64,000 nucleotides of DNA. Origin: Acidimicrobiales bacterium. GTDB lineage: Bacteria; Actinomycetota; Acidimicrobiia; Acidimicrobiales; SHLQ01. The stretch covers positions 80,039 to 144,038 of the forward strand of contig JAHDEJ010000009.1 of NCBI GenBank assembly GCA_020628865.1. Reading direction: 5' to 3'. The translations under genes were made by a program, and so were the position numbers. Below the pieces are notes generated by a model. It saw nothing but the letters and a program-made list of their open reading frames with translations, was not told the DNA's origin and searched no databases. Positions 36,706-58,429 of the stretch are shown here, in pieces (position 1 is the stretch's first letter; every line of letters begins with the position of its first letter).

Positions 36706-36711
36706 AGTCTA
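36706..36711 (-). promoter_or_regulatory. -10-like hexamer TAGACT upstream of gyrB
   Basis: Minus strand reads CTGGTAGACTTACAAGG, about 39 nt upstream of the GTG start. Confidence 0.25.
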
Positions 36712-36758
36712 CCAGAGCAGGGGTGACATCCGGCTCCTCCCGCCCATTTGGCCACCGG

Positions 36759-36767
36759 TTGTCCACA
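36759..36767. promoter_or_regulatory. DnaA-box-like 9-mer TTGTCCACA
   Basis: Exact match to the actinobacterial DnaA-box form TTGTCCACA. It lies next to the AT-rich palindrome CTTGATTTTTCAAG (36777-36790) in the gyrB upstream region. Confidence 0.4.
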
Positions 36768-36972
36768 GGCGATTTTTCTTGATTTTTCAAGCAAACGGAC
36801 AGGTGGCTCTGTCGATCGATTGCGAAGCTCGTGTCGTGACGGCAGGGCGGATCCTGATGGTTCCGACGGCGACGGCGCCGTGCATCTGCCCGGCGCGTCC
36901 GGTCAGGTCGGGTCCAGTGCAATAGGCCGAGGATCGGGACGGCTCACCGACGGCTTGAGTGAGCCAGCGACA

Positions 36973-39255: not shown

Positions 39256-40380
39256 TCAGGTGGCGACAAGGTTGCCCTGCCCGAGTCGGATGGTGGCATC
39301 GGCGACAGCGCCGGGTGGAAGGTCGGTTGCCGAGGTGAGCAGGGTCTGTCCGCTCGGCAGCGCGGCGACCAGCGCCGCGGACCGGTCGTCGTCGAGTTCG
39401 CTGAAAACATCGTCGAGGATGAGGAGCGGCGCAACGCCGACGGTCGAGCGAACGAGTTCGTGCCCGGCGAGGCGCAAGGCCAGGGCGACGGATCGTTGCT
39501 CGCCCTGCGAGGCGTGCGTTCGGGCCGGCATGCCGTTGAGAAGGATCTCGACCTCGTCCCGATGAGGCCCGACCGTGCTGACGCCTCGGCGAACGTCGTC
39601 CTTGCGAGATGCCTCGAGCGCGGCGGCCATTCCCGTGTCGTCCCACGGTGCGACGTAGGCGAGAGAAACGTCGTGGTCGGTTCCGGCCACGGCCCGAAGC
39701 GCCGTGCGCACCAGCGGCGTGAGCTCCGCGATGACACCGTCACGAAGGGCGCACAGCTGATCGCCGATCTGGGCGAACTTCTGATCCCACACGTCGAGGG
39801 TGAAGGCGGCATCGGAGTTGAGCCGGCCGCCACAACCCTTGAGCAACGCGTTGCGTTGTTTGAGGACCTTCTCCATTTCCGCGCGGATCGCCTCGTTGCG
39901 AGGGTGGAGGCCGAGCAGCACGTGGTCGAGATAGGTGCGCCGTTCCCCTGGCGATCCCTTGACCAGTTCGAGGTCGTCGGGCGCGAACACGGTGACCGAC
40001 ATGACGCCGAGCAGGTCCTTGGTCCGCTGGACCTTCTGTCGGTTCATTTGGATGCGGGCGCGGCCGGTGCGAGGCAGTTCGGCCTCGAGGAGGAGCTCGC
40101 GGCCGTCGCTGCGGAGCTGTGCTCGGGCGATCGCGCGCTCGGCCCCGCGCTGGATGAGTGCGTCGGTCGGGGCGCCGCGGAACGACCGCATCGTGGCGAG
40201 CCAGGCGGTGGCTTCGACGATGTTGGTCTTGCCGGAACCGTTGGGCCCGACAATGGCCGTGACCCCGGGAGCAAATGTCATTTCGAAGCTGGAGTGCGAC
40301 CGAAATCCGCTGAGCCAGAGCTGTTCGAGGACGAGCGCAGAGCTGGCGGAGGCCGCGTCGACGGGCGGGGTGTCGGTCAC
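39256..40380 (-). CDS. recF: DNA replication and repair protein RecF
   Basis: LWLSGFRSH, Walker A GPNGSGKTNIVEA, SQGEQRSVALALRLA and Walker B LLILDDVFSELD are present. Confidence 0.95.
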   Translation of the reverse strand: MTDTPPVDAASASSALVLEQLWLSGFRSHSSFEMTFAPGVTAIVGPNGSGKTNIVEATAWLATMRSFRGAPTDALIQRGAERAIARAQLRSDGRELLLEAELPRTGRARIQMNRQKVQRTKDLLGVMSVTVFAPDDLELVKGSPGERRTYLDHVLLGLHPRNEAIRAEMEKVLKQRNALLKGCGGRLNSDAAFTLDVWDQKFAQIGDQLCALRDGVIAELTPLVRTALRAVAGTDHDVSLAYVAPWDDTGMAAALEASRKDDVRRGVSTVGPHRDEVEILLNGMPARTHASQGEQRSVALALRLAGHELVRSTVGVAPLLILDDVFSELDDDRSAALVAALPSGQTLLTSATDLPPGAVADATIRLGQGNLVAT

Positions 40381-42151: not shown

Positions 42152-42445
42152 TCAGTGGCCCATCGCCTTCTGGCTCCAGATGGCACCGCTGAGGATGGCG
42201 CCGAAGCCGCCGCCGATCCAGAAGGAGAGGTATGCGGCGTAGCCGAGGGCTTCACCGGTCGGCGTTCCGCCGACGACGAAGGCGGCGAGGACGCCGACGA
42301 ACACCACCAACATCGTGGTCGGCAGCACGATCTTGAGTGACGCCCCGACGTCGTGCTCCGCCACCGTCTCGGCGACCGGAGTTGGCGCCGCGGCCGGGGC
42401 CGGTGCGGTCTGTTCGGTTGGCTTGAGGGCAAGTGTTGCTGTCAT
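42152..42445 (-). CDS. small two-TM membrane protein, unknown function
   Basis: 97 aa with a Pro/Ala-rich N-terminus and two hydrophobic segments (LPTTMLVVFVGVLAAFVVGG; YLSFWIGGGFGAILSGAIW). Confidence 0.45.
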   Translation of the reverse strand: MTATLALKPTEQTAPAPAAAPTPVAETVAEHDVGASLKIVLPTTMLVVFVGVLAAFVVGGTPTGEALGYAAYLSFWIGGGFGAILSGAIWSQKAMGH

Positions 42446-42477
42446 GTCTTCACGATGACGGCGGCCCTCGTTTGCCC

Positions 42478-42951
42478 CTAGGGACCTATGTCCCGATTGG
42501 CGACCGGTTTCGAAAAGTAGACCCGCGTGTACCCGTGTTCGACGCCCCGATGGGTCTCGGTGAAGCCGCGCCGCGGATAGAAGGTGAGGTTCGAGACCAT
42601 CAGCTCGTTGGTGTAGAGCCGGATCTCTGCGAGCCCGAGCTGTGCCGCCTGCCGTTCCGCTTCACCCAGCAGCGCCGATCCGACGCCGAGACCCTGACCG
42701 GCCATGGGCACGGCCACGGTGTCCACGTAGAAGTGGGTGTCGACCGGCCACATGACGATCATGCCGACGCGTTCGCCGTCGTGGATGGCCATGGTGATCA
42801 CGCCGTCGTCGATGCGGGCGCGGTGGTCCTCGAGCATCGGTGCGGGCTTCTTCCCGATCGCCTCGACGTACTGCACATAGGCGTCGTCGATCGTGGTCAC
42901 GATCCAGTCGTGATCGGCGGGTTCGGCCGGTCGAAAACGAAGGTCGCTCAT
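42478..42951 (-). CDS. GNAT family N-acetyltransferase
   Basis: Motif A region VAVPMAGQGLGVGSALLGEAE and C-terminal FYPRRGF are present. The ATG at 42951 overlaps the mug stop (ATGA). Confidence 0.8.
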   Translation of the reverse strand: MSDLRFRPAEPADHDWIVTTIDDAYVQYVEAIGKKPAPMLEDHRARIDDGVITMAIHDGERVGMIVMWPVDTHFYVDTVAVPMAGQGLGVGSALLGEAERQAAQLGLAEIRLYTNELMVSNLTFYPRRGFTETHRGVEHGYTRVYFSKPVANRDIGP

Positions 42952-44778: not shown

Positions 44779-45969
44779 GTGGCACTCGACGAACACGCTG
44801 ACGAATCCGCCGGTCTGGGCCGGCTCGCCGACGCGATCCTCGAGACCGCGGTCGACCCCATCATCGTCATCGATGGCCGGGGCGTGATCCAGGAAGCGAA
44901 CGCTGCCACCACGGTGCTGTTCGGCCACGACCGCGACGACATGGTTGGCCGCAATGTGTCGATGTTGATGCCGGAGCCGTACCGCTCCGAGCACGATCGT
45001 TACCTGCAGCGCTACCTCGAGACCGGAGAGAAGCACATCATCGGGATCGGCCGTGAGGTGACCGCTCAGCGGGCGGACGGGTCCATCTTTCCCATCGCAC
45101 TGGCCGTCAGCGAAGTGGCGGCCGTCGACGACGGCGCCCGCTGGTTCACCGGGGTCATTCACGACCTGACGGAACGGTTCGCCGCCCAGCGGGCCCTGGA
45201 GGAAGCCAACCGCAACCTCGAGGGGCAGGTGGCCGAACGCACCGCCGAGCTCCGGTCGCTGCTCACCGACCTGGAGCGATCCAACCGCGACCTCGAACAG
45301 TTCGCCTACATCGCGTCCCACGATCTGCAAGCGCCGCTGCGCAACGTGCGTCAGGGCCTCGAACTTCTCGACGCCCACCTGCGGGACACCGCCGGGACGG
45401 GGTTCGACGACGAGGCCCACGAGCTGCAGCAACTCATCACCGCCGCGGTGCGGCGCATGGAGGATCTGGTGACCGGCCTCCTCCATCTGGCACGGGTGGA
45501 CCGCCTCGCCGGTCGACCGACGGACCCGATCGACCTGAACGAGCTGGTCGAAGAGTTGGAGCAGCTGCTGCATGTCGACATTCAGCGTGTCGAGGCATCG
45601 CTGACGGTGGGCGAGTTGCCGACGGTGCCCGGCGATCGGGTCCAGCTCCGGCAGTTGTTGCAGAGCCTGCTGCAGAACGCGCTGCGGTATCGCCAACCGG
45701 ACGAGGCGCCCGACATCACGATCACCGCCACCCAAAGCGATGACGAGTGGATCGTGTCGGTGGGCGATGACGGCGTCGGCATCGACGAACGTGAGCACGA
45801 GCGCATCTTCGAGCTGTTCCGTCGGGGACAGACCGGACAGGAAGGTGTGGGCCTCGGCCTTGCGCTGGCCCAGCGGGTGGCCGAGCGCCACGACGGTCGC
45901 ATCTGGGTCGAGTCGGCACCGGGGCAGGGCGCGACGTTTCATGTGGCGCTCCCGAAACGAGCAGGCTGA
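44779..45969 (+). CDS. cytoplasmic PAS-domain sensor histidine kinase (HisKA type)
   Basis: PAS domain (ILETAVDPIIVIDGRGVIQEANAATTVLFGH..GRNVSMLMPE), H-box FAYIASHDLQAPLRNV and HATPase G-boxes (DDGVGID; GVGLGLAL) are present. No TM segment. GTG at 44779 was chosen downstream of the aldolase stop. Confidence 0.85.
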   Translation: MALDEHADESAGLGRLADAILETAVDPIIVIDGRGVIQEANAATTVLFGHDRDDMVGRNVSMLMPEPYRSEHDRYLQRYLETGEKHIIGIGREVTAQRADGSIFPIALAVSEVAAVDDGARWFTGVIHDLTERFAAQRALEEANRNLEGQVAERTAELRSLLTDLERSNRDLEQFAYIASHDLQAPLRNVRQGLELLDAHLRDTAGTGFDDEAHELQQLITAAVRRMEDLVTGLLHLARVDRLAGRPTDPIDLNELVEELEQLLHVDIQRVEASLTVGELPTVPGDRVQLRQLLQSLLQNALRYRQPDEAPDITITATQSDDEWIVSVGDDGVGIDEREHERIFELFRRGQTGQEGVGLGLALAQRVAERHDGRIWVESAPGQGATFHVALPKRAG

Positions 45970-45979
45970 CGCACCCGCG

Positions 45980-45993
45980 GGGACCTTGGTCCC
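45980..45993. promoter_or_regulatory. DevR/DosR-box-like palindrome GGGACCTTGGTCCC
   Basis: Perfect GGGAC-N4-GTCCC core. The centre is 42.5 nt upstream of the ATG at 46029. Confidence 0.55.
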
Positions 45994-46028
45994 TTCTCGA
46001 TCATCCCTCCCCCGGTCACCGTGGGCAC

Positions 46029-47423
46029 ATGACGTCCACGGCAACGGCCCCCGAATCCCGATCGCTGCGCCTCACCACGCTGCTGCGTCAGGTCGTCCTG
46101 CTTGGGCTTCTGTTCGTCACGATGCTCGTCACCGTGTTCGGTGTCACCGAGACAATCGACCAAGCGTTGCACACCGCGCAGTCGGGCAACGGCGCCCTCG
46201 CCCGATCGCTTGCGATGGTTGCGCTCGGCGCACCCGGATTCGCAGTGACGCTCTCGCTCACGGTCCATCGGCTGCGCGAGAGCGCCGGGTGGGTGACTGG
46301 TCCGATCTGGCAGCTCCATGTCGTGGTGTCGGTGACGGTGTCTCTGGTCGGCATGATGGTCGGCGGCGGCCGTGTGCTCGAAGAGCTCATCCGCAGCTCG
46401 ACGGTCGGCCTTCATGACGTCTCGGTCCTCCTCACATGGGGTGCCGTCTGGCTGATCTACTGGCGCGGTCTCGTGCCTCGGTTCGAACCGCGAGGCGACC
46501 TCCACTTCGCCGCTGTCTGTGTCGTGGGCCTGGTCCCGATGGCGATCGGGCAGACCGGCATCTTGCACATCGGATTGTCGCGAGCGTTCGATGCACTCGC
46601 TGGAGGTGAACCCCTCGACGTCCGGTCGGCGAGCGCAGGGTTCGGTGCCATGTTCCTGGTCGGCGCTGCTGTTTGGATCGGCCTCTGGATGCGGAGCTAC
46701 GAGTCGGCTCCTCGCAGCGACGCATGGCATGCCCTCGTCGTGCTTGTGGGCACGGCCGTCGGATTCGTCGCATGGTTGGCCGCGGTCGCACGGCTTGGCT
46801 GGCTCGTTGCGGTGTGGCTGGTTGGCGACCGGATCGCTCCGTTGGCTTCCGACCACTTCGACACTGCGTCCGTCTGGATCGGCGTCGGCCTCACCGGTGG
46901 CATTTCCTTCCTGTACCACCGCGGATTGATCGGACAGATCGCCGAACGCAATGATCCCGTCCGCGTCGCCGAACACCTCGTGCTGTTCGCATCGCTCGTC
47001 GCAGCGGCGACAGGCGCCGTGGTTCTGGTTTCCGGCGCGGCCAACCCAGACGGGTTTCACGTCAACACGGTGTTGGCCGGTGCGGTGACCATGGCCGCCG
47101 GTGCCGGTGTCGGGGCGCGCCTCGTCGCATGGATGATGGCGCTCGGCCGCACGGCACACGGTCCCACTGAGCGAGCGTCTGCGGTGCGCCGGGCGTACCA
47201 CCTGATCGTGCTCGGCACCGGAATCGTTGTCGGATTGTTTGCCGGGATCGATGCCTTGCAAGGCGTGTTTGAGGACCTGCTCGACGGTGACACCACCATT
47301 CGCACATTTCTCTTGCGGCGCGGCGAGCTGGCCACCGTCGCGGTCATCGTTCCAACGCTCTGGCTGCACCAGGTTGTCCTGCAACAGCACAAGGTGGCCG
47401 GTCAGCCGACCGTCGCCACATGA
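46029..47423 (+). CDS. polytopic integral membrane protein, unknown function
   Basis: 464 aa with about 12 hydrophobic helices. An ATGA overlap couples it to the following REC-kinase gene. Confidence 0.6.
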   Translation: MTSTATAPESRSLRLTTLLRQVVLLGLLFVTMLVTVFGVTETIDQALHTAQSGNGALARSLAMVALGAPGFAVTLSLTVHRLRESAGWVTGPIWQLHVVVSVTVSLVGMMVGGGRVLEELIRSSTVGLHDVSVLLTWGAVWLIYWRGLVPRFEPRGDLHFAAVCVVGLVPMAIGQTGILHIGLSRAFDALAGGEPLDVRSASAGFGAMFLVGAAVWIGLWMRSYESAPRSDAWHALVVLVGTAVGFVAWLAAVARLGWLVAVWLVGDRIAPLASDHFDTASVWIGVGLTGGISFLYHRGLIGQIAERNDPVRVAEHLVLFASLVAAATGAVVLVSGAANPDGFHVNTVLAGAVTMAAGAGVGARLVAWMMALGRTAHGPTERASAVRRAYHLIVLGTGIVVGLFAGIDALQGVFEDLLDGDTTIRTFLLRRGELATVAVIVPTLWLHQVVLQQHKVAGQPTVAT

Positions 47424-48490
47424 CGCCCACGGCACCGCGTCGAAGTAGCGTTGCGGACGCAATGATGGATCTGACCCGCCTCCGTGTGCTCCTCGTCGAG
47501 GACAACGAACTGGATGCCCGGGTCATGCTGCGGACGCTCCGCGAAGCCGCCGAGACCCGCTTCGACGTCCGCCACGAACGGTCGATGCGCGACGCCGTGG
47601 AGGCGCTGCAGGAGCAGGGGTTCGATTGCATCCTGATCGACCTCACCCTGCCGGACACGTTCGGACTCGAGGTGTTGGAGGCCGCCGGCAACGAAGCACC
47701 CGCCACCCCGGTGGTGGTGCTGACCGGGCTCGAGGATCCTCGCCTGGCGGTCGAAGCCGTGGAACATGGCGCGCACGATGTGCTTCCCAAGAGTCGGGTC
47801 GACGGCGACGTGGTGGCCCGGTCCATCCGGTATGCGGTCACCCGCCATCACAGCGAAACCGACCTTCGGGCGACCACGGAACAGCTGCGGGTGGCCAACG
47901 ATCGCAACCGCATTGCGCAGGACCTCCACGACACGGTGATTCAGCAGCTCTTCGCCACCGGCATGAGCTTGCAGGCGCTCACTGCTCGCATCGGTGAGGA
48001 AGAGGTTCGCCAGTCGATCCTCGAGTCCGTCGACCAGATCGACGTGGCGATCCGGGAACTCCGGCAGACGATCTTCGACCTGCACCTCGAACCCGAGTAC
48101 CCGACCGGCGATGAGATCGATCGGGTCATCGAGCAGCAGACCGGTGCCCTTGGCTTCGCGCCGTCGGTCACCCGACAAGGCCTGACCAGCCTGCGCTCCA
48201 GCCTTCGGAGCGACGTCGCCGCGGTGATTCGTGAGGCGCTCTCCAACGTGGCCCAACACGCTGACGCCTCGGTGGTGGCCATTCGTCTCGTGGTCGACGG
48301 GTCAGACCTGATCGTCGAGATCAGCGACAACGGCGTGGGAATCGACTCGACCGGTGCGCCGACATCGGCGTTGCGAGGTCACGGGCTCACGAACCTCCGC
48401 CAACGAGCGAAGGCGAACGGCGGCACGGCCGAGATCGGGCCGGGAGCGGACGGCGGCACAACCGTCCGGTGGGTGGTCCCCGTCGGCTGA
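47420..48490 (+). CDS. hybrid protein: N-terminal receiver (REC) domain + DosS/DosT-like HisKA_3 kinase core
   Basis: REC domain (RVLLVEDNELDARVM..DCILIDLTLPDTFG..VVVLTGLED..DVLPK) is followed by H-box RIAQDLHDTVIQQLFATGMSLQ and HATPase motifs (EALSNVAQHA; DNGVGID; GHGLTNLRQRA). No GAF, PAS or TM segment. Confidence 0.85.
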   Translation: MTPTAPRRSSVADAMMDLTRLRVLLVEDNELDARVMLRTLREAAETRFDVRHERSMRDAVEALQEQGFDCILIDLTLPDTFGLEVLEAAGNEAPATPVVVLTGLEDPRLAVEAVEHGAHDVLPKSRVDGDVVARSIRYAVTRHHSETDLRATTEQLRVANDRNRIAQDLHDTVIQQLFATGMSLQALTARIGEEEVRQSILESVDQIDVAIRELRQTIFDLHLEPEYPTGDEIDRVIEQQTGALGFAPSVTRQGLTSLRSSLRSDVAAVIREALSNVAQHADASVVAIRLVVDGSDLIVEISDNGVGIDSTGAPTSALRGHGLTNLRQRAKANGGTAEIGPGADGGTTVRWVVPVG

Positions 48491-48502
48491 GGCCGACTGG
48501 GC

Positions 48503-49276
48503 TCAGGCGGCTGACGGACCCAGGGCCACAACGGGCACGGTCGACGCATCGATGGCGTCGAAGGCCACGCTTCCCTCACAGATCCACGGCAGTCCGGTCC
48601 GGGCGTGGGTCGGGATCACGAGCAGGCCATCGGCCGACCGCTCCGCGAGGAGCGGACCGAGCGAGCGCGTCTCGACCGCGGAATCCAGCATGCGGGCGTG
48701 GATCTCGTCCGGTCGATCGAAGAGGTCGTCGTCGTAGTCGTGCTCGTAGACGACACCGTCCGGGTCGATGGTGAGTGTTGCGACCGGCAGCTCGCCGAAC
48801 ACGTGGGCGAGCGTTTCTGCCTGCCGTCGGGCCGCGCGATTGCCGGTGCGATCTGCGCTGGCAAGGTAGACCCGTTCGGGTCTGGTGGCGCCGGTCATCG
48901 ACGGTCCGACGAGCACGACGGGTTCGGTCGAAATCGCCAGGATCGACGCGGCACACGAGCCGACGTAGTGGTGGTCACGGAAGGGTGACGCCGCGGTGGC
49001 CATGACGGTGAAGCGATCGGCGCACGCTCGTGTCACCGCCTCGTGCTCGTCGGTCGACTCGATCACATGCAGCGACATCGGGACGGGTTCTTGCCGGGCG
49101 AGGGCGGCGATGCGTCGGCTGAAGTCCTGATGGCGGCCGGCCACATCGTCGTCGGGGTGGGCGACGTGCACGAACAGAAGACGACGCTCGAACGCCGTGG
49201 CGAAGGCGGCGGCGATTCGACCGACGAAGTGAACATCGTCGAGGTGGCGCACGGGAACCACGATCGGATCAGTCAT
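48503..49276 (-). CDS. tandem universal stress protein (USP)-like protein
   Basis: Two USP-like halves ending in ..EPVVLVGP and ..VPVVALGP. They are divergent from canonical USPs, so this is family-level only. Confidence 0.55.
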   Translation of the reverse strand: MTDPIVVPVRHLDDVHFVGRIAAAFATAFERRLLFVHVAHPDDDVAGRHQDFSRRIAALARQEPVPMSLHVIESTDEHEAVTRACADRFTVMATAASPFRDHHYVGSCAASILAISTEPVVLVGPSMTGATRPERVYLASADRTGNRAARRQAETLAHVFGELPVATLTIDPDGVVYEHDYDDDLFDRPDEIHARMLDSAVETRSLGPLLAERSADGLLVIPTHARTGLPWICEGSVAFDAIDASTVPVVALGPSAA

Positions 49277-49739
49277 CGGCGCACACCACCAATTCGTCGG
49301 CGGGCACGACCAGAAGCGGCGTCTTCAGATGGTGCACGAGGTACGTGGTGGTCGAACCGACGAGCAGTCCGCGGAAGCCACCCATGCCACGCGTGCCGGT
49401 GACGGTGAGCACGACGTTGGCATCTTCTTCGTAGTGGTTGACGCAAAGCAGTTGTGAACCGACGTGGCCGAGGCGGACGACCGACCGTACCTGCACCGGG
49501 AATCCGTCCGGATACTCGTCCTCGACGATGCGGAGTTCTCGTTCGAGCGCGGCTCGGCCCGCTTCCTCCAACGCACCGAGGTCGACCACTGCGGCGTCGC
49601 CGACCCCGATCATGAGCGGGTAGTGCACGACGTGCACTGCGAGGACGCCGGCGGACCGCCATTCGGCTTCGGCGATCGCTGTGCGAAGCGCGCGACGCGC
49701 GTTCCCGGATCCATCAACTCCCACCACGACGACATCCAT
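49269..49739 (-). CDS. universal stress protein (single UspA domain)
   Basis: Carries VVVGVDGSGNARRALRTAIAEA and C-terminal TGTRGMGGFRGLLVGSTTTYLVHHLKTPLLVV. The ATG at 49739 was chosen because the remainder of ORF 49269..51011 is antisense junk. Confidence 0.85.
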   Translation of the reverse strand: MDVVVVGVDGSGNARRALRTAIAEAEWRSAGVLAVHVVHYPLMIGVGDAAVVDLGALEEAGRAALERELRIVEDEYPDGFPVQVRSVVRLGHVGSQLLCVNHYEEDANVVLTVTGTRGMGGFRGLLVGSTTTYLVHHLKTPLLVVPADELVVCADD

Positions 49740-49801
49740 TGGTTCGTCCTTTCGTTTCGTTGGTTGGTGTTCAGCATCAGCGCGACGGGCCGCTCCGGGC
49801 A

Positions 49802-49815
49802 GGGGCTTTGGTCCC
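49802..49815. promoter_or_regulatory. DevR/DosR-box-like palindrome GGGGCTTTGGTCCC
   Basis: It sits in the divergent region between the USP (49739, -) and the permease (49851, +). The centre is 42.5 nt from the + ATG and 69.5 nt from the - ATG. Confidence 0.5.
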
Positions 49816-49850
49816 TTCTGCATTCGAGCGAGGTTCCGCAGGCTGTCGTC

Positions 49851-51092
49851 ATGCTCACGGACCCGACCACTTCCACCCCGACGTCCCCAGCCACCGGCGA
49901 GGACGCCGGCCTCGAACGGACCCTGTCGCTGCCGCTGCTCGTGTTCTACGGGCTCGGCGTGACCGTGGGAGCCGGAATCTTCGCCCTCGTCGGCGAGATC
50001 CTCGGCATCGCCGGCGACCAGGCCCCGCTCGCATTCCTTCTGGCCGGCGTGATCGCCGGTTTCACCGGGATCTCGTACATGGCGCTCGTCGCGCAGTTCC
50101 CTCGGGCTGGTGGTGAAGCGGTCTATGTGAACCGTGGGCTCGGTCGACAGGCCGGCCGCTTCGCCGGTCTTGGAGTTGTGGTGACCGGGATCATCTCGAG
50201 CGCAGTGGTCGCCCAGGCCTTCTCGGGTTACGTGGCCACGTTGGTCTCGGTTCCCAAGAGCCTGACCGCAGCGCTCCTCGTCCTCCTCCTCACGGCCGTG
50301 GCCTGGTGGGGTGTTCGAGAGAGTGTGATCGTCGCCAGCGTCGTCACGATTCTGGAGGTCGGCACGCTGATGATCGTGGCCCTCTTCGGCGTCCCCGAGA
50401 TCGACCTTGGTGTGGTGCAGGACGGCTTCGATCTCCGAGGCGCTGGGACGGCGGGAGCGGTGCTCACCGGGGCCGGCATCGCCTTCTTCGCCTTCATCGG
50501 TTTCGAGGACATCGCCAACATGGCCGAAGAGACGAACAACCCCCGGACGACGGCACCTCGAGCCATCCGCTGGACCCTGTCGATCACGTTGATCGCCTAC
50601 GTGGGACTTGCACTCGTGGCCGCGTCGCTTCCGGACCGAGCGGCCATCGCCGACTCGGACGCACCGATGGCGGTGATCTTCGAAGCGGTCAGCGGCCTGG
50701 GTTCGGCACCGGTGGCGACCATCGCCGCATTTGCGATGGTGAACGGCATCCTCGTGCAGATCGTGATGGCCTCGCGTGTGCTCTACGGCATGGCCAATGA
50801 GGGCCAGCTTCCGGGCACGTTCTCGGTGATCGACAGTCGTCGGCGCACCCCGGCTCGAGCGACCCTCTTCGTGGGTGCGGCGATCGTCCTGCTGTTGATG
50901 TTCCCGCTGGTCACGCTCGCTCGGGCAACGAGCATCGTGACGCTGAGCGTCTTCACGCTGGTGAACGTGGCGCTCGTCCGGCTCACTCGCACCATCCCCG
51001 AGCTGGGGCACACCCGCTGGCTCCTGAATGGCGCCATCGGCGCGGTCGTCTCAGCCGGCCTGGGTGTGTGGCAGATCGTCGAACTCTTCTGA
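49851..51092 (+). CDS. APC superfamily amino acid / polyamine permease
   Basis: LSLPLLVFYGLGVTVGAGIFAL.., FIGFEDIANMAEETNNP and 12 TM helices are present. The ATG at 49851 was chosen. Confidence 0.85.
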   Translation: MLTDPTTSTPTSPATGEDAGLERTLSLPLLVFYGLGVTVGAGIFALVGEILGIAGDQAPLAFLLAGVIAGFTGISYMALVAQFPRAGGEAVYVNRGLGRQAGRFAGLGVVVTGIISSAVVAQAFSGYVATLVSVPKSLTAALLVLLLTAVAWWGVRESVIVASVVTILEVGTLMIVALFGVPEIDLGVVQDGFDLRGAGTAGAVLTGAGIAFFAFIGFEDIANMAEETNNPRTTAPRAIRWTLSITLIAYVGLALVAASLPDRAAIADSDAPMAVIFEAVSGLGSAPVATIAAFAMVNGILVQIVMASRVLYGMANEGQLPGTFSVIDSRRRTPARATLFVGAAIVLLLMFPLVTLARATSIVTLSVFTLVNVALVRLTRTIPELGHTRWLLNGAIGAVVSAGLGVWQIVELF

Positions 51093-51093
51093 G

Positions 51094-51750
51094 CTACTCG
51101 AACCGGCGGCGCTGTTGCTCTTCGACACGAACGGCCATCGCTGCCGCCTGGGTTCGTCGGGTCACACCGAGCTTTGCGAACAGGTTGGAGATGTAGTTCT
51201 TCACCGTCTTCTCGGCGAGGTGCATCTGCTCGGCGATCTGTCGGTTCGACATGCCGTCGCCGATGAGATCGAAGATCCTGCGTTCCTGAGGTGTGAGCTC
51301 GGCCAGCATGCCCGCCTCCGTGTCCCGCACGCGGCGCATCCGCATGCGAACCTCGGCATCATCGAGCAGTTGGGCACCGGCAGCCACCTTGCGGATCGAG
51401 ACGATCAGGTCGTTCGAGCGAACCTCTTTGAGGACGTAGCCCGCGGCGCCCGCCATCGCTGCTTCGAGCAGCGCCTGGTCGTCGGCGAAGGAGGTGAGGA
51501 TCAGGCAGGGTAGCTCCGGATGCTCTGCCCGAACCTCCCGGCACACTTCGATTCCGTTGCCGTCGCCGAGGCGAACGTCGAGCACGGCCACGTCGGGTTC
51601 GCAGCGACGAATCTCGGCCATCGCTTCCGCCGCGCTGGCGGCTTCGCCGACGACCGTCATGTCGGCCTCCGCCTCGATGAGGCCCGCCAGGCCACGACGG
51701 ACGATCTCGTGATCGTCGAGCAGAAAAACGCGAGTCAGCGGCTCGGTCAT
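51094..51750 (-). CDS. devR: DevR/DosR-like NarL-family response regulator
   Basis: RVFLLDDHEIVRRGLAGLI..PDVAVLDVRLGDGNGIEVCREV..CLILTSFADDQALLEAAMAGAAGYVLKEV and LTPQERRIFDLIGDGMSNRQIAEQMHLAEKTVKNYISNLFAKLGVTRRTQAA run nearly colinear with Mycobacterium tuberculosis DevR as I recall it. Confidence 0.8.
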   Translation of the reverse strand: MTEPLTRVFLLDDHEIVRRGLAGLIEAEADMTVVGEAASAAEAMAEIRRCEPDVAVLDVRLGDGNGIEVCREVRAEHPELPCLILTSFADDQALLEAAMAGAAGYVLKEVRSNDLIVSIRKVAAGAQLLDDAEVRMRMRRVRDTEAGMLAELTPQERRIFDLIGDGMSNRQIAEQMHLAEKTVKNYISNLFAKLGVTRRTQAAAMAVRVEEQQRRRFE

Positions 51751-51803
51751 GGCGGCTCCCTTCACGGCTGGGCTCCGGCCAATCGTAGTTTCGATGAACA
51801 CCG

Positions 51804-52628
51804 TCAGGAGATGGAGTCGTTGCGGTGGACGGCGAGCACAGGCACCGGGCTCATCGCAACGACATCATCGAGCACGCTCCCGTGGAGGAGCCGGTCGAGT
51901 CCGAGTGGCACGTGGGAGGTCATGGCAACCATTGGTGCGTTGCGGGCAATTGCGGTCTCGACGATTTCCGGCGCCGCATCACCGTGCCGCACTTCGTACA
52001 TGGGTGTGGGGATCTGAGGAGCGCTGCTGCGGGCAAGGTTCGCCACGTACGCGGACTCCTGCACATCGCCGGACCGTGCGGACACCAGGTCGGCCGAGGT
52101 GTCGGGGTCGAGCACGGTCATCAGATCCAGTGGACGGCGGAAGGTGTCAGCGAACGCCTCGGCGGAAGCGAGAATCCGTTCAGCCCCGTCCGATCCGTCG
52201 AGCGCAACCACCACCGGCCCGTCTCGGAGAAGCGGGGCGGGTTCGCACTTCGGACCGACGAGGACGACGGGCCGGTCGAGGTAGGTGAGCACGTCCATGG
52301 TCATCGATCCGGTGAGTGCAGCTCGTCGGCCGCCCTTCGTGGCGGAGAGGACCAGGATCGCGTCGGGTGAGGCGGCGGTCTCGTCGACGAGCTCGTCGTG
52401 GAAGAAGCCCTGCGTGACCATCGCGGTCACCGTGGCTCGAAGACCGGTGCGAATGCTGATCGAGTCGGCGACGCGCTGGGCCATGTCGAGCTGGCCGATC
52501 CGGTCGTCGGACGAGCCGACGAGGAGGCGCATGGAACCGCCGAGGGCCCGGGTGAGATCGGTGGCGATGGCGAGCGTTCGCTCGGATCGTTCCGTTTCGG
52601 TGAAGGGGACAAGCACTTCCTTGAACAT
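51804..52628 (-). CDS. tandem universal stress protein
   Basis: The ATG at 52628 gives MFKEVLVPFTETE. Two USP halves end in RPVVLVGP and VPVLAVH. It lies upstream of and co-directional with devR. Confidence 0.75.
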   Translation of the reverse strand: MFKEVLVPFTETERSERTLAIATDLTRALGGSMRLLVGSSDDRIGQLDMAQRVADSISIRTGLRATVTAMVTQGFFHDELVDETAASPDAILVLSATKGGRRAALTGSMTMDVLTYLDRPVVLVGPKCEPAPLLRDGPVVVALDGSDGAERILASAEAFADTFRRPLDLMTVLDPDTSADLVSARSGDVQESAYVANLARSSAPQIPTPMYEVRHGDAAPEIVETAIARNAPMVAMTSHVPLGLDRLLHGSVLDDVVAMSPVPVLAVHRNDSIS

Positions 52629-52690
52629 GGGTCGCTCCTGCTCTCTGTCGTCGGTCCCTTCATCGTGCGTTGCGACGTGTGATTGGCACA

Positions 52691-52729
52691 GGGTCGAAGG
52701 TCCCGCCCCGGTGTCGGGACCTTGGGCCC
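52691..52729. promoter_or_regulatory. two DevR/DosR-box-like palindromes in a divergent USP promoter region
   Basis: GGGTCGAAGGTCCC (52691-52704) and GGGACCTTGGGCCC (52716-52729) have centres 25 bp apart. An extra half-site GGTCCCTTC lies at 52654-52662. Confidence 0.5.
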
Positions 52730-52798
52730 TGCTGTTCCTCGTGCGTCGTCGCAACGATGGTGGCGGGAACACTCCCAGGAGACTCCGGAGGTGGAGCG

Positions 52799-53644
52799 AT
52801 GACCGACCGAATCGTGGTGGCAGTCGATGACACCGAGGCTGCGGCGGCGGCCCTTGGCTGGGCCGTCGACCTCGTCGACCATGAGCATGCCCGCGGCAAC
52901 AAGGTCCACACGACCCTCCTGACCGTGCATGAGCCGCGGGAGTTCGTCGGCATCGAGGGGTATGGCCTCGTGAAGTCCGCCCATGCCGTTGCGGAGGCGC
53001 AGCAACTGCTGAGCCGGCTGCTGCAGGCGGAGCCGGCCGCAGCGGACTTCGAACGGGTCATCGGTGGTGGTGAGGTTCGTCGAGCGATCCTCGACGAGGC
53101 CGGCCACCAGCGGGCGGATCTGATCGTTGTCGGGACCCGCCATCTCGGGGCAGTACGGCAGGCGATGGTCGGCAGTGTGAGTCAGTTCGTCGCTGCGCAA
53201 CGAGAGTGTCCGGTGGCGGTTGTGCCGGCCGAGGCGACCCGGTCCAGCGATCGGGTACTCGTCGGATACGACGGCTCAGCTGGCGCCCGAGCGGCGATTC
53301 GCTGGGCACTGGAGAATTGCGACGGTGACGTGCACGTCGTCCACGTTGTGGGGGCGCAATCCGATCTGGTCGAGAGCCGCGAGGCGTTGGCCGCGCTGGT
53401 GCCCGCGCTCGGCGACGAGGCCGTTGGTCGTGTCACCGCTGAGAGTGTCGTGGGTGATCCGGTTGATGTGTTGAGCGACCCCACCTGGGCGGCTCCACAG
53501 GTGGTTGTCGGTGCTCGGAGCGACTCCGACCAGCGGGATGCCATCTGGGGTTCCGTCACGACCCAACTCCTCGCAACGACCGAACGCCCTGTTGTGGTCG
53601 TTCCGCCAGAGCCCTGGCTCTGGGGCCGTCACGCCCCCAGCTGA
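52799..53644 (+). CDS. tandem universal stress protein
   Basis: The ATG at 52799 follows GGAGGTGGAG. It carries RIVVAVDDTEAAAAALGWAV, DLIVVGTRHLG..GSVSQFVAAQRECPVAVV and a second half ending RPVVVVP. Confidence 0.85.
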   Translation: MTDRIVVAVDDTEAAAAALGWAVDLVDHEHARGNKVHTTLLTVHEPREFVGIEGYGLVKSAHAVAEAQQLLSRLLQAEPAAADFERVIGGGEVRRAILDEAGHQRADLIVVGTRHLGAVRQAMVGSVSQFVAAQRECPVAVVPAEATRSSDRVLVGYDGSAGARAAIRWALENCDGDVHVVHVVGAQSDLVESREALAALVPALGDEAVGRVTAESVVGDPVDVLSDPTWAAPQVVVGARSDSDQRDAIWGSVTTQLLATTERPVVVVPPEPWLWGRHAPS

Positions 53645-56596: not shown

Positions 56597-56883
56597 ACTT
56601 GTTTGTCGTGGAGCGAATGGAGAATCCGTCGCTCATCATCCCACCTCCCGCACGTCCCATCCTCTCGAACTGCGCTGACACAAGCCTGACATCACATTTC
56701 ACATGGTGCGAGCGCCTCGAGATCCGGCAGCCTCCGAAGAAGTGCAGTCCCAACCCGTTCATTATGAAAATAGGCAAGAACGCTTGCTCCTGCCATCCGT
56801 TGTGGGCGAGCCCAAAAAGATTCTCCGAAGGAAACCCGTCGCCGGGAGCGATGAACCGGCCACACAACGGTGAGGAGAAGGAA

Positions 56884-57639
56884 ATGACAGTGGCGATGGG
56901 TGCCGAAGCGGCGGCACCGGAAGCAGATCTCGTGTCGGTCGTCTACGACCCTCTGGTGGCTGCAGCGCGTCGCCGGTACGTGACCGGCCGAGGACATCGG
57001 GCGATGACGGATCCGGCAGCCCGGCCGGAAGTTCTGGATCGGTTCCTGATCGAATTCTGTGCACAAGGCGTGCACATGACTCGCCCGGTCGACGACTGGA
57101 TCACCCGCGCTGGAGCGCGGTGCATCGAGCTCGGGATGGGCGAACTCGGTGCCGCATTGCAACGGCATGCGGTGCACGAAGCCGGGCATCACTCGATGAT
57201 GATCGACGACACCCGGATGCTCGTCGCGGCATGGAACCAGGACGGTCGCCGGCCGCTCGATGCCGACGAACTGCTGGCCCGGGACCCCTCCCCCGGCGTC
57301 CAGCAGTACGTCGAGCTGCATGAGCGCACGATCGACTCGGCGAATCCGTGGGGGCAGCTCGCCATCGAGTACGAGATCGAGCTGCTCTCGATCACATCGG
57401 GGCCCGTGTTGATCGGCAACGTGGCCGCCGTGTGTGGGGCGGACCGAGTGCAGTCGCTGAGCTTTCTCACCGACCACATCGCCGTCGACGAGGGGCACAC
57501 GGTCTTCAATCGTCGGCAGTTGAATCAGGTCCTGGCCGAGCGACCGGCGTTGGCCGTGCCGCTCGCCGCGGCCGGATCCGCGGCACTCGACGCCCACGCC
57601 CGGTTCATCGACGACTGCGCGGAGGTGGCAACGACATGA
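56884..57639 (+). CDS. heme-oxygenase-like fold protein, putative di-iron oxidase/oxygenase (iron-containing redox enzyme family)
   Basis: The ATG at 56884 follows GAGGAGAAGG. The protein is all-helical with spaced carboxylate/His pairs (HAVHEAGHH; EYEIE; DHIAVDEGH), as in HO-like di-iron enzymes. This is family-level inference only. Confidence 0.5.
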   Translation: MTVAMGAEAAAPEADLVSVVYDPLVAAARRRYVTGRGHRAMTDPAARPEVLDRFLIEFCAQGVHMTRPVDDWITRAGARCIELGMGELGAALQRHAVHEAGHHSMMIDDTRMLVAAWNQDGRRPLDADELLARDPSPGVQQYVELHERTIDSANPWGQLAIEYEIELLSITSGPVLIGNVAAVCGADRVQSLSFLTDHIAVDEGHTVFNRRQLNQVLAERPALAVPLAAAGSAALDAHARFIDDCAEVATT

Positions 57640-58169
57640 CGGTGGACATCCGATTCGCGGCGGACGACCGCGAGCATCGGGCCGCGTATCGCTTGCGGGC
57701 GGAGGTCTTCACGGGTGAGGGCATCCTTGCGCGGTCGGCGGATGAGCTGCTGTTCGACACCTTCGACACGCTGCCGTCGTCGCGCACGATGGTCGCAGTC
57801 AAGGATCGGCAGGTCGTCGGAACCGTGCGGGTCACCTGGGCGGATGCGGAAGCGTCCCCGGTGCAGGAGTGGTTCGACCCGACGACGGTCTTCCCCGATG
57901 GCGCGGTCGTCGGCTACGGGTCGATGCTCTGCGTGGCGGCGTCCCACCGGCGGGGCACGCTCGGTCTGCGGTTGGTGAACGCGGCGATGGCAGTGCAACG
58001 CAAGCGGGGCACCACACATGGGGTTGCCCCGATCCGGCCCGAGGCGGAACCGATCTTTCGCCGCCTGGGGTGGTTTCGGGTGGCCGAGCCGTTCGACCAT
58101 CCAATCGAACGGGTGCCCGTCGTCCCCATGGGCGCCGACCTGTGGGCGGGCGTGCTGGCCCGGACGTGA
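57636..58169 (+). CDS. GNAT-fold N-acyltransferase (N-acyl amino acid synthase / autoinducer-synthase-like, Acetyltransf_5 type)
   Basis: An ATGA overlap couples it to the upstream gene. It carries YRLRAEVFTGEGIL..ELLFDTFD..MVAVKDRQVVGTVRV and C-terminal FRRLGWFRV, as in FeeM/OlsB-like acyltransferases. Confidence 0.5.
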   Translation: MTVDIRFAADDREHRAAYRLRAEVFTGEGILARSADELLFDTFDTLPSSRTMVAVKDRQVVGTVRVTWADAEASPVQEWFDPTTVFPDGAVVGYGSMLCVAASHRRGTLGLRLVNAAMAVQRKRGTTHGVAPIRPEAEPIFRRLGWFRVAEPFDHPIERVPVVPMGADLWAGVLART

Positions 58170-58282
58170 GTGGTCGTGGGTAGATCTGCCTCATCACGAG
58201 TGTGATGGATGCGCCGAACAAGTCTCTACCGGGAACCTTCAGCAGCATCTTCGGATGAAACCCCCACCCTGACCTGAAGGTG

Positions 58283-58318
58283 GGTTCCGGGCGGAGTACC
58301 GCCACTCCGCCCGGAACC
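58283..58318. terminator. perfect 15-bp-stem hairpin (terminator or boundary element)
   Basis: GGTTCCGGGCGGAGT-ACCGCC-ACTCCGCCCGGAACC. It is preceded by the smaller hairpin CCCACC(58263-58268)/GGTGGG(58279-58284). There is no U-tract. Confidence 0.45.
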
Positions 58319-58429
58319 TCCGGAAATCCTCGGCGCATCCGTTCCCGAGCCAGCGCTGCAGCACATGCGCGACGACTAACGTCTCGGCAATCGACGGAGA
58401 AGTTGCCGTCGAGGTGAGGAGGCGGACAG

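Follow-up and report, generated by a model that had tools for sequence, protein, structure and literature searches.

How might a stress regulon of the DevR type, which in Mycobacterium tuberculosis is served by GAF-heme kinases, receive its signal where the neighbouring DNA encodes no GAF domain? The question is raised by a gene cluster in a 64-kb stretch of DNA (hereafter the window), for which a preliminary description had reported a DevR-type dormancy island with universal stress protein (USP) genes and without a GAF-type sensor kinase. The source organism, known from metagenomes only, is an uncultured actinobacterium that probably belongs to the Acidimicrobiia. The cluster is real and occupies window positions 44779-53644, with one further palindromic box outside that span (Table 1). 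The preliminary account was partly borne out: the cluster and its regulator, the DevR/OsdR affiliation and a non-GAF route of signal entry stand, whereas the USP count and the novelty of a location outside mycobacteria do not.

Table 1. Features of the locus in window coordinates
Feature	Position	Strand	Basis or remark
Two-TM ORF, 97 aa, ahead of DUF885 gene	42152..42445	-	outside the span given in the preliminary description
Palindrome GGGACCTATGTCCC, perfect	42481..42494	.	centre 42.5 nt upstream of 97-aa two-TM ORF
FixL-type heme-PAS histidine kinase, PAS-HisKA-HATPase, 396 aa, soluble	44779..45969	+	Pfam PAS, HisKA, HATPase_c
Palindrome GGGACCTTGGTCCC, perfect	45980..45993	.	centre 42.5 nt upstream of DUF5671 start codon
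DUF5671 polytopic membrane protein, 464 aa, about 11-12 TM segments	46029..47423	+	Pfam DUF5671 E 8e-15; hydropathy profile
Rec-controlled histidine kinase, REC-HisKA_3-HATPase	47420..48490	+	Pfam domains; alternative start 47465
Divergent tandem USP-like protein, 257 aa	48503..49276	-	family profile, structure model
Single-domain USP, 156 aa	49269..49739	-	canonical G-x2-G-x9-G-S motif; ribosome-binding site and ATG read
Palindrome GGGGCTTTGGTCCC, divergent promoter region	49802..49815	.	centre 42.5 nt from permease ATG, 69.5 nt from USP156 ATG
APC-family amino-acid permease, 413 aa	49851..51092	+	Pfam AA_permease_2 E 6e-35; NCBIfam amino acid transporter; gene call
Response regulator, DevR/OsdR-type, REC and GerE HTH, 218 aa	51094..51750	-	best solved match DevR 3c3w
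Tandem USP, 274 aa, first gene of putative USP-regulator operon	51804..52628	-	Pfam Usp, 2 stretches, E 9e-26; gene call
Palindromes GGGTCGAAGGTCCC (52691..52704) and GGGACCTTGGGCCC (52716..52729), between divergent tandem USP genes	52691..52729	.	GGGTCGAAGGTCCC centred 69.5 nt from USP274 start codon
Tandem USP, 281 aa	52799..53644	+	Pfam Usp, 2 stretches, E 3e-36; gene call

The regulator and its USP neighbours

The regulator, previously described as NarL-type and almost colinear with DevR, indeed aligns with M. tuberculosis DevR (PDB 3c3w) over residues 2-208 with a single 2-residue gap (E 7e-64, 218 bits, 52% identity), the next solved protein being VraR at 136 bits. The phospho-site is conserved, with D8, D9, D54, T82 and K104 identical to DevR, and so are the DNA-contacting K179, K182 and N183 of the mycobacterial protein. 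In neighbour-joining trees with few outgroups the regulator falls inside the DevR/OsdR superclade, apart from seven other NarL-type regulators (100/100 bootstrap), and close relatives are named DevR in the JGI annotation. On its sequence, the regulator is thus of the DevR/OsdR type. Its gene lies 53 nt 3' of the 274-aa tandem USP gene on the same strand, which makes co-transcription probable, as for Rv3134c-devR; the two genes probably share a transcript as a putative operon.

Five USP genes, three of them tandem, had been counted originally. The whole window, however, contains four USP-type ORFs (two canonical tandem, one single-domain and one divergent tandem), all within 5.1 kb around the regulator. 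The divergent protein has degenerate ATP-binding motifs and is below the Pfam Usp threshold (E 0.015); the first 8 nt of its gene coincide with the last 8 of the single-domain USP gene. Its family profile identifies Rv2623 in the PDB (5e-11), Pfam Usp is matched by 20 of 25 sequences in its alignment (12 of these sequences being weak matches, E 1e-22 or weaker), and its AlphaFold model (pLDDT 90) has Rv2623 (3cis) as best fold (E 1e-8). By profile and predicted fold, therefore, the 257-aa protein is a divergent tandem USP. The APC permease gene was correctly reported, and homologues are present in the related loci L008, L175 and L176 (L numbers denote loci used for comparison). The word 'island', in the sense of horizontal transfer, is rejected: GC content is uniform across the locus, which is syntenic, with the same gene order, in the 84%-identical relative L170, beside recF and gyrB.

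DosR-box-like palindromes in the promoter regions

Palindromes resembling the DosR box (AGGGACCWWGGTCCCT) are present in each intergenic promoter region of the cluster, and in the same places in relatives. The box GGGACCTTGGTCCC is at the same position in L170 and L173, GGGGCTTTGGTCCC is conserved in L170 and L171, and GGGTCGAAGGTCCC, GGGACCTTGGGCCC and GGGACCTATGTCCC are all conserved in L170. The motif also precedes sensor or USP operons in L004, L006, L008 and L173-L177, and the same motif type adjoins DevR-like genes of other Actinobacteria.

One could argue that these palindromes are not regulator sites but terminators or chance GC-rich inverted repeats, the cluster being a fortuitous neighbourhood of stress genes. 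Indeed, the window as a whole has no excess of motif matches (7 observed versus 7.5 expected from shuffling), and the site at 45980 is 11 nt past a stop codon. Three of the five sites, however, lie between divergently transcribed genes, in promoter regions that contain no gene end, and no palindrome is followed by a T-run or called terminator-like. While the total is unremarkable, the placement is significant, as four of the seven best matches in the 64 kb fall within the cluster's 340 nt of intergenic DNA (P = 3e-8, with a position weight matrix trained in part on the window's own sites). The spacing of box to start codon is fixed (42.5 nt three times, 69.5 nt twice), orthologous positions are retained in relatives at 50-84% protein identity, and the motif fits the experimentally defined OsdR and DevR consensus (PMC5069765). 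We regard a chance or terminator origin as highly improbable; the DosR-box-type motif appears to mark the promoters of the cluster and provides candidate sites for the regulator.

Two kinases and the absence of GAF domains from the window

As first reported, the locus lacks a GAF-type sensor kinase: Pfam scans detected no GAF domain in the locus or the rest of the 64-kb window, and when GAF regions taken from seven GAF-HisKA_3 kinases served as phmmer queries, the full set of six-frame ORFs of the window yielded a single match, a spurious one (E 3e-4). The two kinases noted at the outset, one PAS-HisKA and one with a DosS/T-like HisKA_3 core, are both present. That the PAS domain is of the FixL type, that the HisKA_3 kinase carries an N-terminal receiver domain and that a DUF5671 gene is located between the two had not been mentioned.

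The PAS domain of the first kinase matches those of BjFixL (1dp6, E 6e-30) and RmFixL (1d06, E 1e-29), is 48-53% identical to rhizobial FixL heme-PAS domains, and keeps equivalents of the heme-pocket residues His200, Arg206, His214, Ile215, Arg220 and Leu236; H72 and R92 are invariant across 16 homologues and both rhizobial FixL sequences. The best NCBIfam model for the protein is FixL, below its cut-off (200 versus 850 bits), and the DHp/CA core is nearest to bacteriophytochrome kinases and 8f71, and is thus bacteriophytochrome-like rather than FixL-like. These alignments identify a FixL-type heme-PAS domain, and the kinase may be expected to bind heme and to have O2 as its signal.

The second enzyme (Rec-kinase) has two candidate starts, the ATG at 47420 (356 aa) and position 47465 (341 aa). 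In 18 homologues the receiver residues D59, T87 and K109 are invariant, as are the kinase residues H155 and N261 and the DxG and GxG motifs. Among solved structures its ATP-binding domain is nearest to M. tuberculosis DevS/DosS and DosT (E 6e-16 to 3e-12), the catalytic domain shares 36% identity with DosS (TM 0.76), and the nearest relatives beyond its own family are PAS- or GAF-HisKA_3 kinases annotated DevS. In the structure model (pLDDT 82) a long helix, residues 114-173, connects REC to DHp, and the fold is matched best by LvrB, a Rec-kinase of Leptospira (8vc9, E 8e-15). Judged from alignments and the model, the Rec-kinase is of the same class as LvrB, with a DevS/DosT-type core. The earlier suggestion of signal entry by a non-GAF route is supported, and made more specific, by this domain content, in which a FixL-type heme-PAS kinase is predicted and a receiver replaces GAF on the DevS-like core.

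The DUF5671 stop codon overlaps the upstream candidate start of the Rec-kinase (47420, ATGA), and the order DUF5671 then Rec-kinase recurs in L170 and L173. In the window and L170 the DUF5671 gene stands between the two kinases, in the place of the stand-alone receiver found in most relatives. Because this gene and a box separate them, the window kinases do not form one operon.

Gene linkage and the proposed pathway

In related Acidimicrobiia contigs the genes of the FixL-like kinase and the Rec-kinase adjoin, in many cases as overlapping members of one operon, with USP genes and the gene of a DevR-like regulator nearby. The FixL-like kinase gene is directly upstream of the other in L177, is separated from it in L004, L005, L006 and L174 by the gene of a small stand-alone receiver (stop and start codons overlapping), and is within 2-3.5 kb of it in L008 and L175; 21 more contigs carry both genes (judged from contigs of identical length in two homologue searches). 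L173 and L090 count against a relay from one kinase to the other, as the Rec-kinase and regulator are present with no FixL-like kinase in the sequence available there. The tight, often overlapping linkage suggests that the Rec-kinase is the substrate of the PAS kinase. The regulators that have a linked Rec-kinase group in a clade of their own (100/100 bootstrap, neighbour-joining), as expected of co-evolving partners.

We propose, with about even confidence, that the locus is a DevR/OsdR-type stress regulon with a rebuilt sensory front end, probably triggered by hypoxia. The soluble FixL-type kinase would sense O2 and, by analogy with FixL, be active when deoxygenated. It would phosphorylate the N-terminal receiver of the Rec-kinase, thereby switching the HisKA_3/ATPase core, ON if the enzyme behaves like LvrB, and the Rec-kinase would in turn phosphorylate the DevR-like regulator. 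The phosphorylated regulator would bind the palindromes and activate five units: the USP274-regulator operon, USP281, USP156 with the divergent USP, the APC permease, and the DUF5671/Rec-kinase operon; the unit of the small membrane protein and DUF885, at a distance of 3.5 kb, probably belongs to the regulon as well. Boxes ahead of both the regulator operon and the DUF5671/Rec-kinase operon would imply positive feedback on the regulator and the second kinase, and the FixL-like kinase, with no DosR-like box upstream of its gene, would stay constitutive. The domain identities, the catalytic and heme-pocket residues, the motif with its placement and the synteny are evident in the DNA; heme binding, O2 as the signal, the order of phosphotransfer, each transfer and whether it switches its target on or off, and an activating rather than repressing regulator are inferred. 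In favour of the relay, kinases with a bacteriophytochrome-like core, such as that of the FixL-like kinase, are known to act on single receiver domains and on the Rec-kinase ExsG (PMC3899027). Receiver phosphorylation activates LvrB (PMC13269768) but inhibits ExsG (PMC3899027), and the sign here may follow either.

A branched pathway, in which the FixL-like kinase phosphorylates the regulator directly and the Rec-kinase is a second, feedback-controlled kinase/phosphatase or a phosphate sink by which the response is tuned or reset, is possible but rather unlikely. Such an arrangement would resemble that of M. tuberculosis, where DosT is constitutive and DevS inducible, or the FixT receiver of Caulobacter. 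FixL itself phosphorylates the NarL/FixJ-family regulator FixJ, and FixJ and DevR belong to one superfamily. L176 combines a FixL-like kinase with a stand-alone receiver and a DevR-like regulator that has boxes, and no Rec-kinase lies within 10 kb; direct transfer, as from FixL to FixJ, is therefore possible. In addition, a box precedes the Rec-kinase operon of the window and none the FixL-like kinase, and single-domain receivers that modulate FixL are known (FixT, PMC7078487). The DHp/CA core of the PAS kinase, however, is not FixL-like, and DevR-type regulators elsewhere adjoin HisKA_3 kinases, being within 2.5 kb of a GAF-HisKA_3 kinase at 37 of 62 GAF-type loci in other Actinobacteria. Furthermore, the Rec-kinase retains all residues for autophosphorylation, and its linkage points to a substrate of the PAS kinase.

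It is also conceivable, if improbable, that both kinases are mere regulon members or serve another pathway, the true kinase being a GAF- or PAS-HisKA_3 enzyme encoded elsewhere; the lack of GAF would then reflect the view of the genome, of which 64 kb were read. Single-GAF or PAS-HisKA_3 kinases do adjoin DevR-like regulators in other Acidimicrobiia (L022, L035, L075, L081, L029, L038, L054), and on one 6.3-Mb contig the Rec-kinase (L177) and the DevR-like regulator (L176) are 700 kb apart. Against this, in the window and in L170, L004, L006, L008, L173 and L175 no HisKA_3 kinase other than the Rec-kinase occurs within 10 kb of the regulator; for L090 the sequence covered extends about 10 kb to one side and 1.4 kb to the other. 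The core of the Rec-kinase is the one most closely related to DevS-type cores, and the regulators beside Rec-kinases are a distinct, fully supported clade. Transfer through the Rec-kinase is thus the reading that we prefer.

Comparison with known systems

The locus does lie outside mycobacteria, as first emphasized, but this is not new: DevR-type USP islands are already known from Streptomyces, as OsdR/OsdK (PMC5069765), and DevR-like regulators adjoin GAF-HisKA_3 kinases at the 37 actinobacterial loci above. OsdR of Streptomyces coelicolor is a DevR orthologue with USP genes around it, autoregulated via the 16-nt palindrome AGGGCCGATCGGCCCT and variants such as CGGGACCTTCGGCCCT; OsdK, a DevS/DosT orthologue (41-42% identical), is in an operon with the regulator and reportedly keeps most oxygen-sensing residues (PMC5069765). 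The present locus shares the DevR-type regulator amid USP genes, but has a Rec-controlled kinase core and, in addition, a kinase of the FixL type.

The M. tuberculosis DevR-DevS/DosT system is similar in its collinear regulator with identical phospho-site and DNA-contacting residues, the ATP-binding domain of its kinases, the GGGAC-N4-GTCCC-type palindrome with central A/T pair, and a USP-rich neighbourhood with USP-then-regulator order; one sensor without a box and another preceded by one recall DosT and DevS. In contrast, here GAF is absent from the 64-kb window, the DevS-type core is under an N-terminal receiver, the role of putative heme sensor falls to a distinct FixL-type PAS kinase whose core is HisKA rather than HisKA_3, and regulator and kinase genes are not adjacent.

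With rhizobial FixL-FixJ the locus shares a soluble kinase and a heme-PAS domain with the proximal His and the Arg206, His214, Ile215 and Arg220 equivalents, and the small single-domain receiver by the kinase in related loci resembles FixT beside FixL in Caulobacter (PMC7078487). It differs in its bacteriophytochrome-like kinase core, a score far under the NCBIfam FixL equivalog cut-off, the lack of FixJ or FixK, a linked regulator of the DevR type and an actinobacterial host. The REC-helix-DHp-CA architecture is shared with the systems LvrA-LvrB-LvrC of Leptospira (PMC13269768) and BphP1-AgR-ExsG-ExsF (PMC3899027), as is an upstream sensor kinase encoded next door; the latter system also has the four-part layout of the relatives (sensor kinase, stand-alone receiver, Rec-kinase, downstream regulator). 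Unlike both systems, the DHp is HisKA_3 (DevS-type) rather than HisKA or HWE, the predicted input is heme-PAS rather than phytochrome, and the output is a NarL-type DNA-binding regulator rather than an anti-sigma factor or single receiver. What is new here is that oxygen input to a DevR-type regulon seems to be provided by a FixL-type heme-PAS kinase, probably via a Rec-kinase, instead of the GAF-heme kinases of M. tuberculosis.

Results

Gene content and chromosomal setting of the locus

Genes were called from third-position GC bias, Pfam matches and the gene calls on identical metagenome contigs, as the GC content of the window is 66% and spurious open reading frames (ORFs) are numerous. Because gyrA, gyrB and recF lie in the wider window, the cluster can be assigned to the core chromosome, close to genes usually found in the origin region. 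In an 84%-identical relative (L170), gene order is retained throughout from gyrB to the final universal stress protein (USP) gene, and DciA adjoins recF. A horizontally acquired island was considered and is ruled out by the uniform GC content and the synteny with L170.

Features of the window and their coordinates
Feature	Coordinates	Strand	Remarks
gyrA	22655..25258	-	
gyrB	34724..36943	-	
recF	39256..40380	-	
97-aa two-TM ORF with box	42152..42494	-	upstream of DUF885 gene (40447..~42117); outside the region first described
PAS-HisKA-HATPase kinase (FixL-like)	44779..45969	+	
DUF5671 membrane protein	46029..47423	+	~11-12 TM segments
REC-HisKA_3-HATPase kinase (Rec-kinase)	47420/47465..48490	+	
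257-aa protein	48503..49276	-	no Pfam hit
Single-domain USP (USP156)	49269..49739	-	
APC permease	49851..51092	+	
NarL-type regulator	51094..51750	-	
Tandem USP (USP274)	51804..52628	-	
Tandem USP (USP281)	52799..53644	+	
AAA/LuxR regulator, 850 aa	53629..56181	-	LAL-type, AbsR2-like
PtuA (Septu)	58418..60661	+	PADLOC E 2e-183; N-terminus also matches PtuB/HNH models
PtuB (Septu)	60586..61545	+	ORF, start codon not fixed; PADLOC E 1e-77
Boxes	42481, 45980, 49802, 52691, 52716		DosR-box-like palindromes

The last USP gene is met by the convergent gene of the 850-aa regulator, with an overlap of 16 nt. This gene adjoins the cluster in L170 and in a further related locus, L002, and no box was found for it. 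Beyond it lies a stretch of ~1.8 kb (56600..58400) containing no ORF with the strong third-position GC bias typical of the window; its longest ORFs had no Pfam or PADLOC match. The stretch is flanked by a 133-aa gene, which lies immediately upstream of the LuxR-type regulator, and by a Septu anti-phage defence system (58418..61545, plus strand).

The preliminary description had counted five USP genes, but only four USP-type ORFs are present in the 64 kb: when their proteins were used as phmmer queries against all six-frame ORFs of 50 aa or more, nothing but these four was returned. USP274, USP281 and USP156, named by their length in amino acids, lie above the Pfam threshold for Usp (PF00582), while the 257-aa protein misses it (E 0.015). 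The family profile of this last protein matches Rv2623 (5e-11), its structural model (pLDDT 90) has Rv2623 as nearest fold, and 20 of its 25 aligned sequences match Pfam Usp, although 12 of the 25 could be ordinary USPs, being weak matches only (E 1e-22 or weaker). Profile and predicted fold qualify the protein as a divergent tandem USP.

The regulator and its candidate boxes

The likeness of the regulator to Mycobacterium tuberculosis DevR, noted in the preliminary description, is borne out by alignment with the solved protein (3c3w), which extends from end to end (E 7e-64, 218 bits); the next solved protein, VraR, scores 136 bits. The regulator has the Pfam domains Response_reg and GerE. The phospho-acceptor Asp and the acidic pocket (D8, D9, D54, T82 and K104) are identical in the two proteins, as is the stretch AEKTVKNY, residue numbers having been checked by counting along the chain. 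Identity extends to K179, K182 and N183 of the recognition helix, the residues that contact DNA in the DosR-DNA structures. Neighbour-joining (distance) trees, in which the outgroup comprised seven other NarL-type regulators only, place the protein inside a DevR/OsdR superclade with bootstrap support of 100/100 and not with another NarL subfamily. The superclade includes M. tuberculosis DevR and regulators that adjoin GAF-HisKA_3 kinases, from Streptomyces, Nocardia, Rhodococcus, Micromonospora and others; within it, the regulators linked to the receiver-bearing kinase described below (Rec-kinase) form a fully supported subclade of their own in these distance trees.

The motif GGGACNNNNGTCCC, with at most one mismatch, occurs at 7 sites in the 64 kb against 7.5 expected, which is not above chance. 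It is the placement of the sites that is informative: four fall within the three intergenic regions of the island, 340 nt in total (P = 3e-8), and a fifth, perfect site lies upstream of the 97-aa membrane-protein ORF that precedes the DUF885 gene. Beyond these five, no site in the window scored above 10.1 bits with a position weight matrix. The box centre lies 42.5 nt from the start codons of the DUF5671 gene, the permease gene and the 97-aa ORF; for USP156 and USP274 the distance is 69.5 nt. The shorter spacing raises the speculative idea of leaderless transcripts; a scan for sigma-70-type promoters gave no matches. The palindromes were also considered as terminators, a reading that was rejected because none is terminator-like and because of their position in divergent promoter regions.

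The window's boxes are conserved in L170, and equivalent boxes precede sensor or USP operons in eight further related loci (L004, L006, L008 and L173-L177). Both the 97-aa ORF and its box are kept in L170, and this unit is a probable extra member of the regulon. The derived consensus, AGGGACCWWGGTCCCT, matches that of M. tuberculosis DevR, TTSGGGACTWWAGTCCCSAA. It also matches the published OsdR consensus AGGGCCGATCGGCCCT, a motif itself stated to agree with the M. tuberculosis DevR consensus (PMC5069765). The same matrix detects sites adjoining DevR-like genes in other Actinobacteria. Candidate regulator boxes are thus found upstream of the regulator's own operon and of USP genes, and the locus is very probably a DevR/OsdR-type regulon complete with its boxes.

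A FixL-like sensor domain and a receiver-controlled kinase

The PAS domain of the first kinase matches those of BjFixL (E 6e-30) and RmFixL (E 1e-29) with ~50% identity. Counted along the BjFixL chain, equivalents of His200, Arg206, His214, Ile215, Arg220 and Leu236 are all present, and the equivalents of His200, the proximal heme ligand, and of Arg220 are invariant in 16 homologues and both rhizobial proteins. Some relatives of this kinase are already labelled FixL in JGI annotation. The NCBIfam equivalog for full-length FixL (NF041777) is indeed its best match, but at 199.8 bits against a cut-off of 850, and its kinase core is closer to those of bacteriophytochrome kinases. Judged by sequence, then, the protein is FixL-like in its sensor domain and is not a FixL orthologue; it is probably a heme sensor. 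No FixJ-type partner was identified for it, the linked regulator being of the DevR type.

The other kinase had been described as having a DosS/T-like core. This is borne out, Pfam recognizing HisKA_3 and HATPase_c in it: among solved structures its ATP-binding domain is closest to the DosS/DosT catalytic domains (E 6e-16 to 3e-12 against the PDB), with a structural match of 36% identity and TM 0.76. At the N-terminus, the tandem GAF domains with heme in GAF-A that define DevS/DosT are absent and a receiver domain is found instead. The Rec-kinase is related to DevS/DosT by its kinase core only. Residues D59 (the phospho-acceptor), T87 and K109 of the receiver, and H155, N261 and the G-boxes of the kinase, are invariant in 18 homologues. 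In the structural model (pLDDT 82), whose top fold match is Leptospira LvrB, a 60-residue helix (114-173) links the receiver to the DHp domain. A single polypeptide thus contains all the parts of the Rec-controlled architecture of LvrB, ExsG and PhcR, namely a phosphorylatable receiver, a signalling helix, a DHp domain carrying the phospho-His, and a CA domain. It has no sensor domain besides the receiver.

The earlier statement that GAF domains are missing is upheld for the whole window, as neither Pfam on ~50 ORFs nor phmmer with seven GAF regions found any. When species-representative genomes were scanned with the Rec-kinase alignment, the matches listed were almost only generic DevS-type cores (62 GAF, 7 PAS and no clear Rec-kinase); they provide a comparison set and not a count of Rec-kinases. 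Of the 80 loci among those matches with kinase cores most similar to that of the window, 62 have GAF-type kinases, and a DevR-like regulator lies within 2.5 kb in 37 of the 62. A metagenome scan with the receiver-domain alignment gave, among the matches listed, one true relative (L090) besides generic receiver domains.

Other Acidimicrobiia carry PAS-HisKA_3 kinases annotated as DevS (proteins P0104-P0115; L029, L034, L038, L054, L058 and L068). Their PAS domains have a His at the position of FixL His200 and a similar motif pattern, and these proteins may be directly fused heme-PAS/DevS-type kinases adjoining DevR-like regulators and USPs. In yet other Acidimicrobiia a single GAF domain is found on HisKA_3 kinases. 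These intermediate designs point to a sensor that has been swapped repeatedly on a constant DevR output.

Linkage of the two kinases in relatives

The Rec-kinase family comprises ~100 clusters, the named ones coming from Acidimicrobiales or Actinomycetota metagenome-assembled genomes, and the next-best matches outside it are PAS- or GAF-HisKA_3 kinases annotated as DevS. In four loci (L004, L005, L006 and L174) the genes for the FixL-like kinase, a stand-alone receiver of 140-156 aa and the Rec-kinase follow one another with overlapping stop and start codons. The two kinase genes are 2 nt apart in L177, 2-3.5 kb apart in L008 and L175, and separated by the DUF5671 gene in the window and L170; in L173 the DUF5671 gene precedes that of the Rec-kinase, with no FixL-like kinase within 10 kb. 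Both kinase genes occur on 21 further contigs, as judged by equal-sized contigs in two match lists. Genes found repeatedly in these loci encode DevR-like regulators, USPs, an APC permease, a Zeta-toxin/AAA_33 protein, a ribosome-hibernation factor and a CBS protein.

The DUF5671 gene lies directly upstream of the Rec-kinase gene in the window, L170 (11258..12640) and L173 (8244..9938), in the position held by the stand-alone receiver in other relatives, and in all three a perfect box is located ~43 nt upstream of it. The protein may be a membrane co-sensor or an anchor for the soluble Rec-kinase. Adjoining the DevR-like regulator in relatives are an S30AE ribosome-hibernation factor and a CBS-pair protein (L004 3378..4157; L006 3005..3781; L004 6508..6909), a parallel to Rv0079 and Rv2626c of the DosR regulon in M. 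tuberculosis.

It is the conserved adjacency of the kinase genes that supports the proposal that the Rec-kinase is phosphorylated by an upstream kinase and in turn phosphorylates the regulator. It could be argued that the pathway is instead branched, with direct transfer from the FixL-like kinase to the regulator. In one locus, L176, a FixL-like kinase is found together with a stand-alone receiver and a DevR-like regulator and no Rec-kinase is nearby, and this arrangement keeps the direct route alive, although we consider a branched pathway unlikely. That the regulator answers to an unseen cognate kinase encoded elsewhere in the genome seems more improbable still, and chance as the explanation of the locus is very improbable. 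The genome that contains L176, a 6.3-Mb metagenome contig (ERZ25072999), holds a second FixL-like kinase in L177, there with a Rec-HisKA_3 kinase immediately after it; each of the two loci is preceded by boxes. The L176 kinase is accompanied, besides its receiver and regulator, by PPDK, USPs, an APC permease and a cation ATPase, and a NiFe-hydrogenase operon is near.

Discussion

The best-supported model of the locus is a cascade from O2 through the FixL-like kinase and the Rec-kinase to the regulator. Oxygen would be perceived by the FixL-type heme-PAS kinase, which would signal to the receiver domain of the Rec-kinase; this receiver would control its DevS-type kinase core and, through it, the DevR-like regulator, which would act at the palindromes on the USPs, the permease, the Rec-kinase operon and its own operon. 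For the exact order of phosphotransfer we hold the chances to be even. No box precedes the FixL-like kinase; the DUF5671/Rec-kinase operon has one in front of it and the USP274-regulator unit has two. From this distribution the primary sensor is predicted to be constitutive, and the second kinase and the regulator to be under positive feedback.

Somewhat more tentative is the wider reading, that a single three-tier cascade, conserved across uncultured Acidimicrobiia, unites two textbook systems of heme-based O2 sensing, with the relay as an extra control point. As part of that reading, and with the same reserve, the control point would be the stand-alone receiver in most relatives and the DUF5671 membrane protein in the window's lineage; it could provide a second input, signal inversion or a sharper switch.

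Should the cascade be real, the DevR regulon, familiar mainly from tuberculosis latency, would be an ancient module across the actinobacteria with a repeatedly exchanged sensor front end. Three versions of this front end were observed: GAF-heme, a PAS fused directly to the HisKA_3 core, and a split design of FixL-type kinase and Rec-kinase. The basic picture of DevR biology would be unchanged. The locus would also offer a natural example of a Rec-controlled kinase defined at both ends, the input being a heme-PAS O2 sensor and the output a DNA-binding regulator whose box can be recognized. It would likewise provide a testable handle on the low-oxygen survival of abundant uncultured Acidimicrobiia. 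Few Rec-controlled kinases have defined partners both upstream and downstream, LvrB only since 2026, and the regulatory mechanism has been solved only recently, for LvrB.

FixL itself is already known. DevR-type, USP-rich loci outside mycobacteria are likewise established, through OsdR/OsdK (PMC5069765), as are Rec-controlled kinases (PMC13269768, PMC3899027). Literature searches, of incomplete coverage, on FixL from Acidimicrobiia and on FixL together with DevR gave no description of the arrangement in question. This consists of a DevS-type core with a receiver in place of its GAF-heme sensor, coupled by conserved gene order to a FixL-type heme-PAS kinase. LvrB, the prototype of Rec-controlled kinases, is activated by receiver phosphorylation (PMC13269768), whereas the sign is opposite for ExsG in the BphP1-AgR-ExsG-ExsF pathway (PMC3899027).
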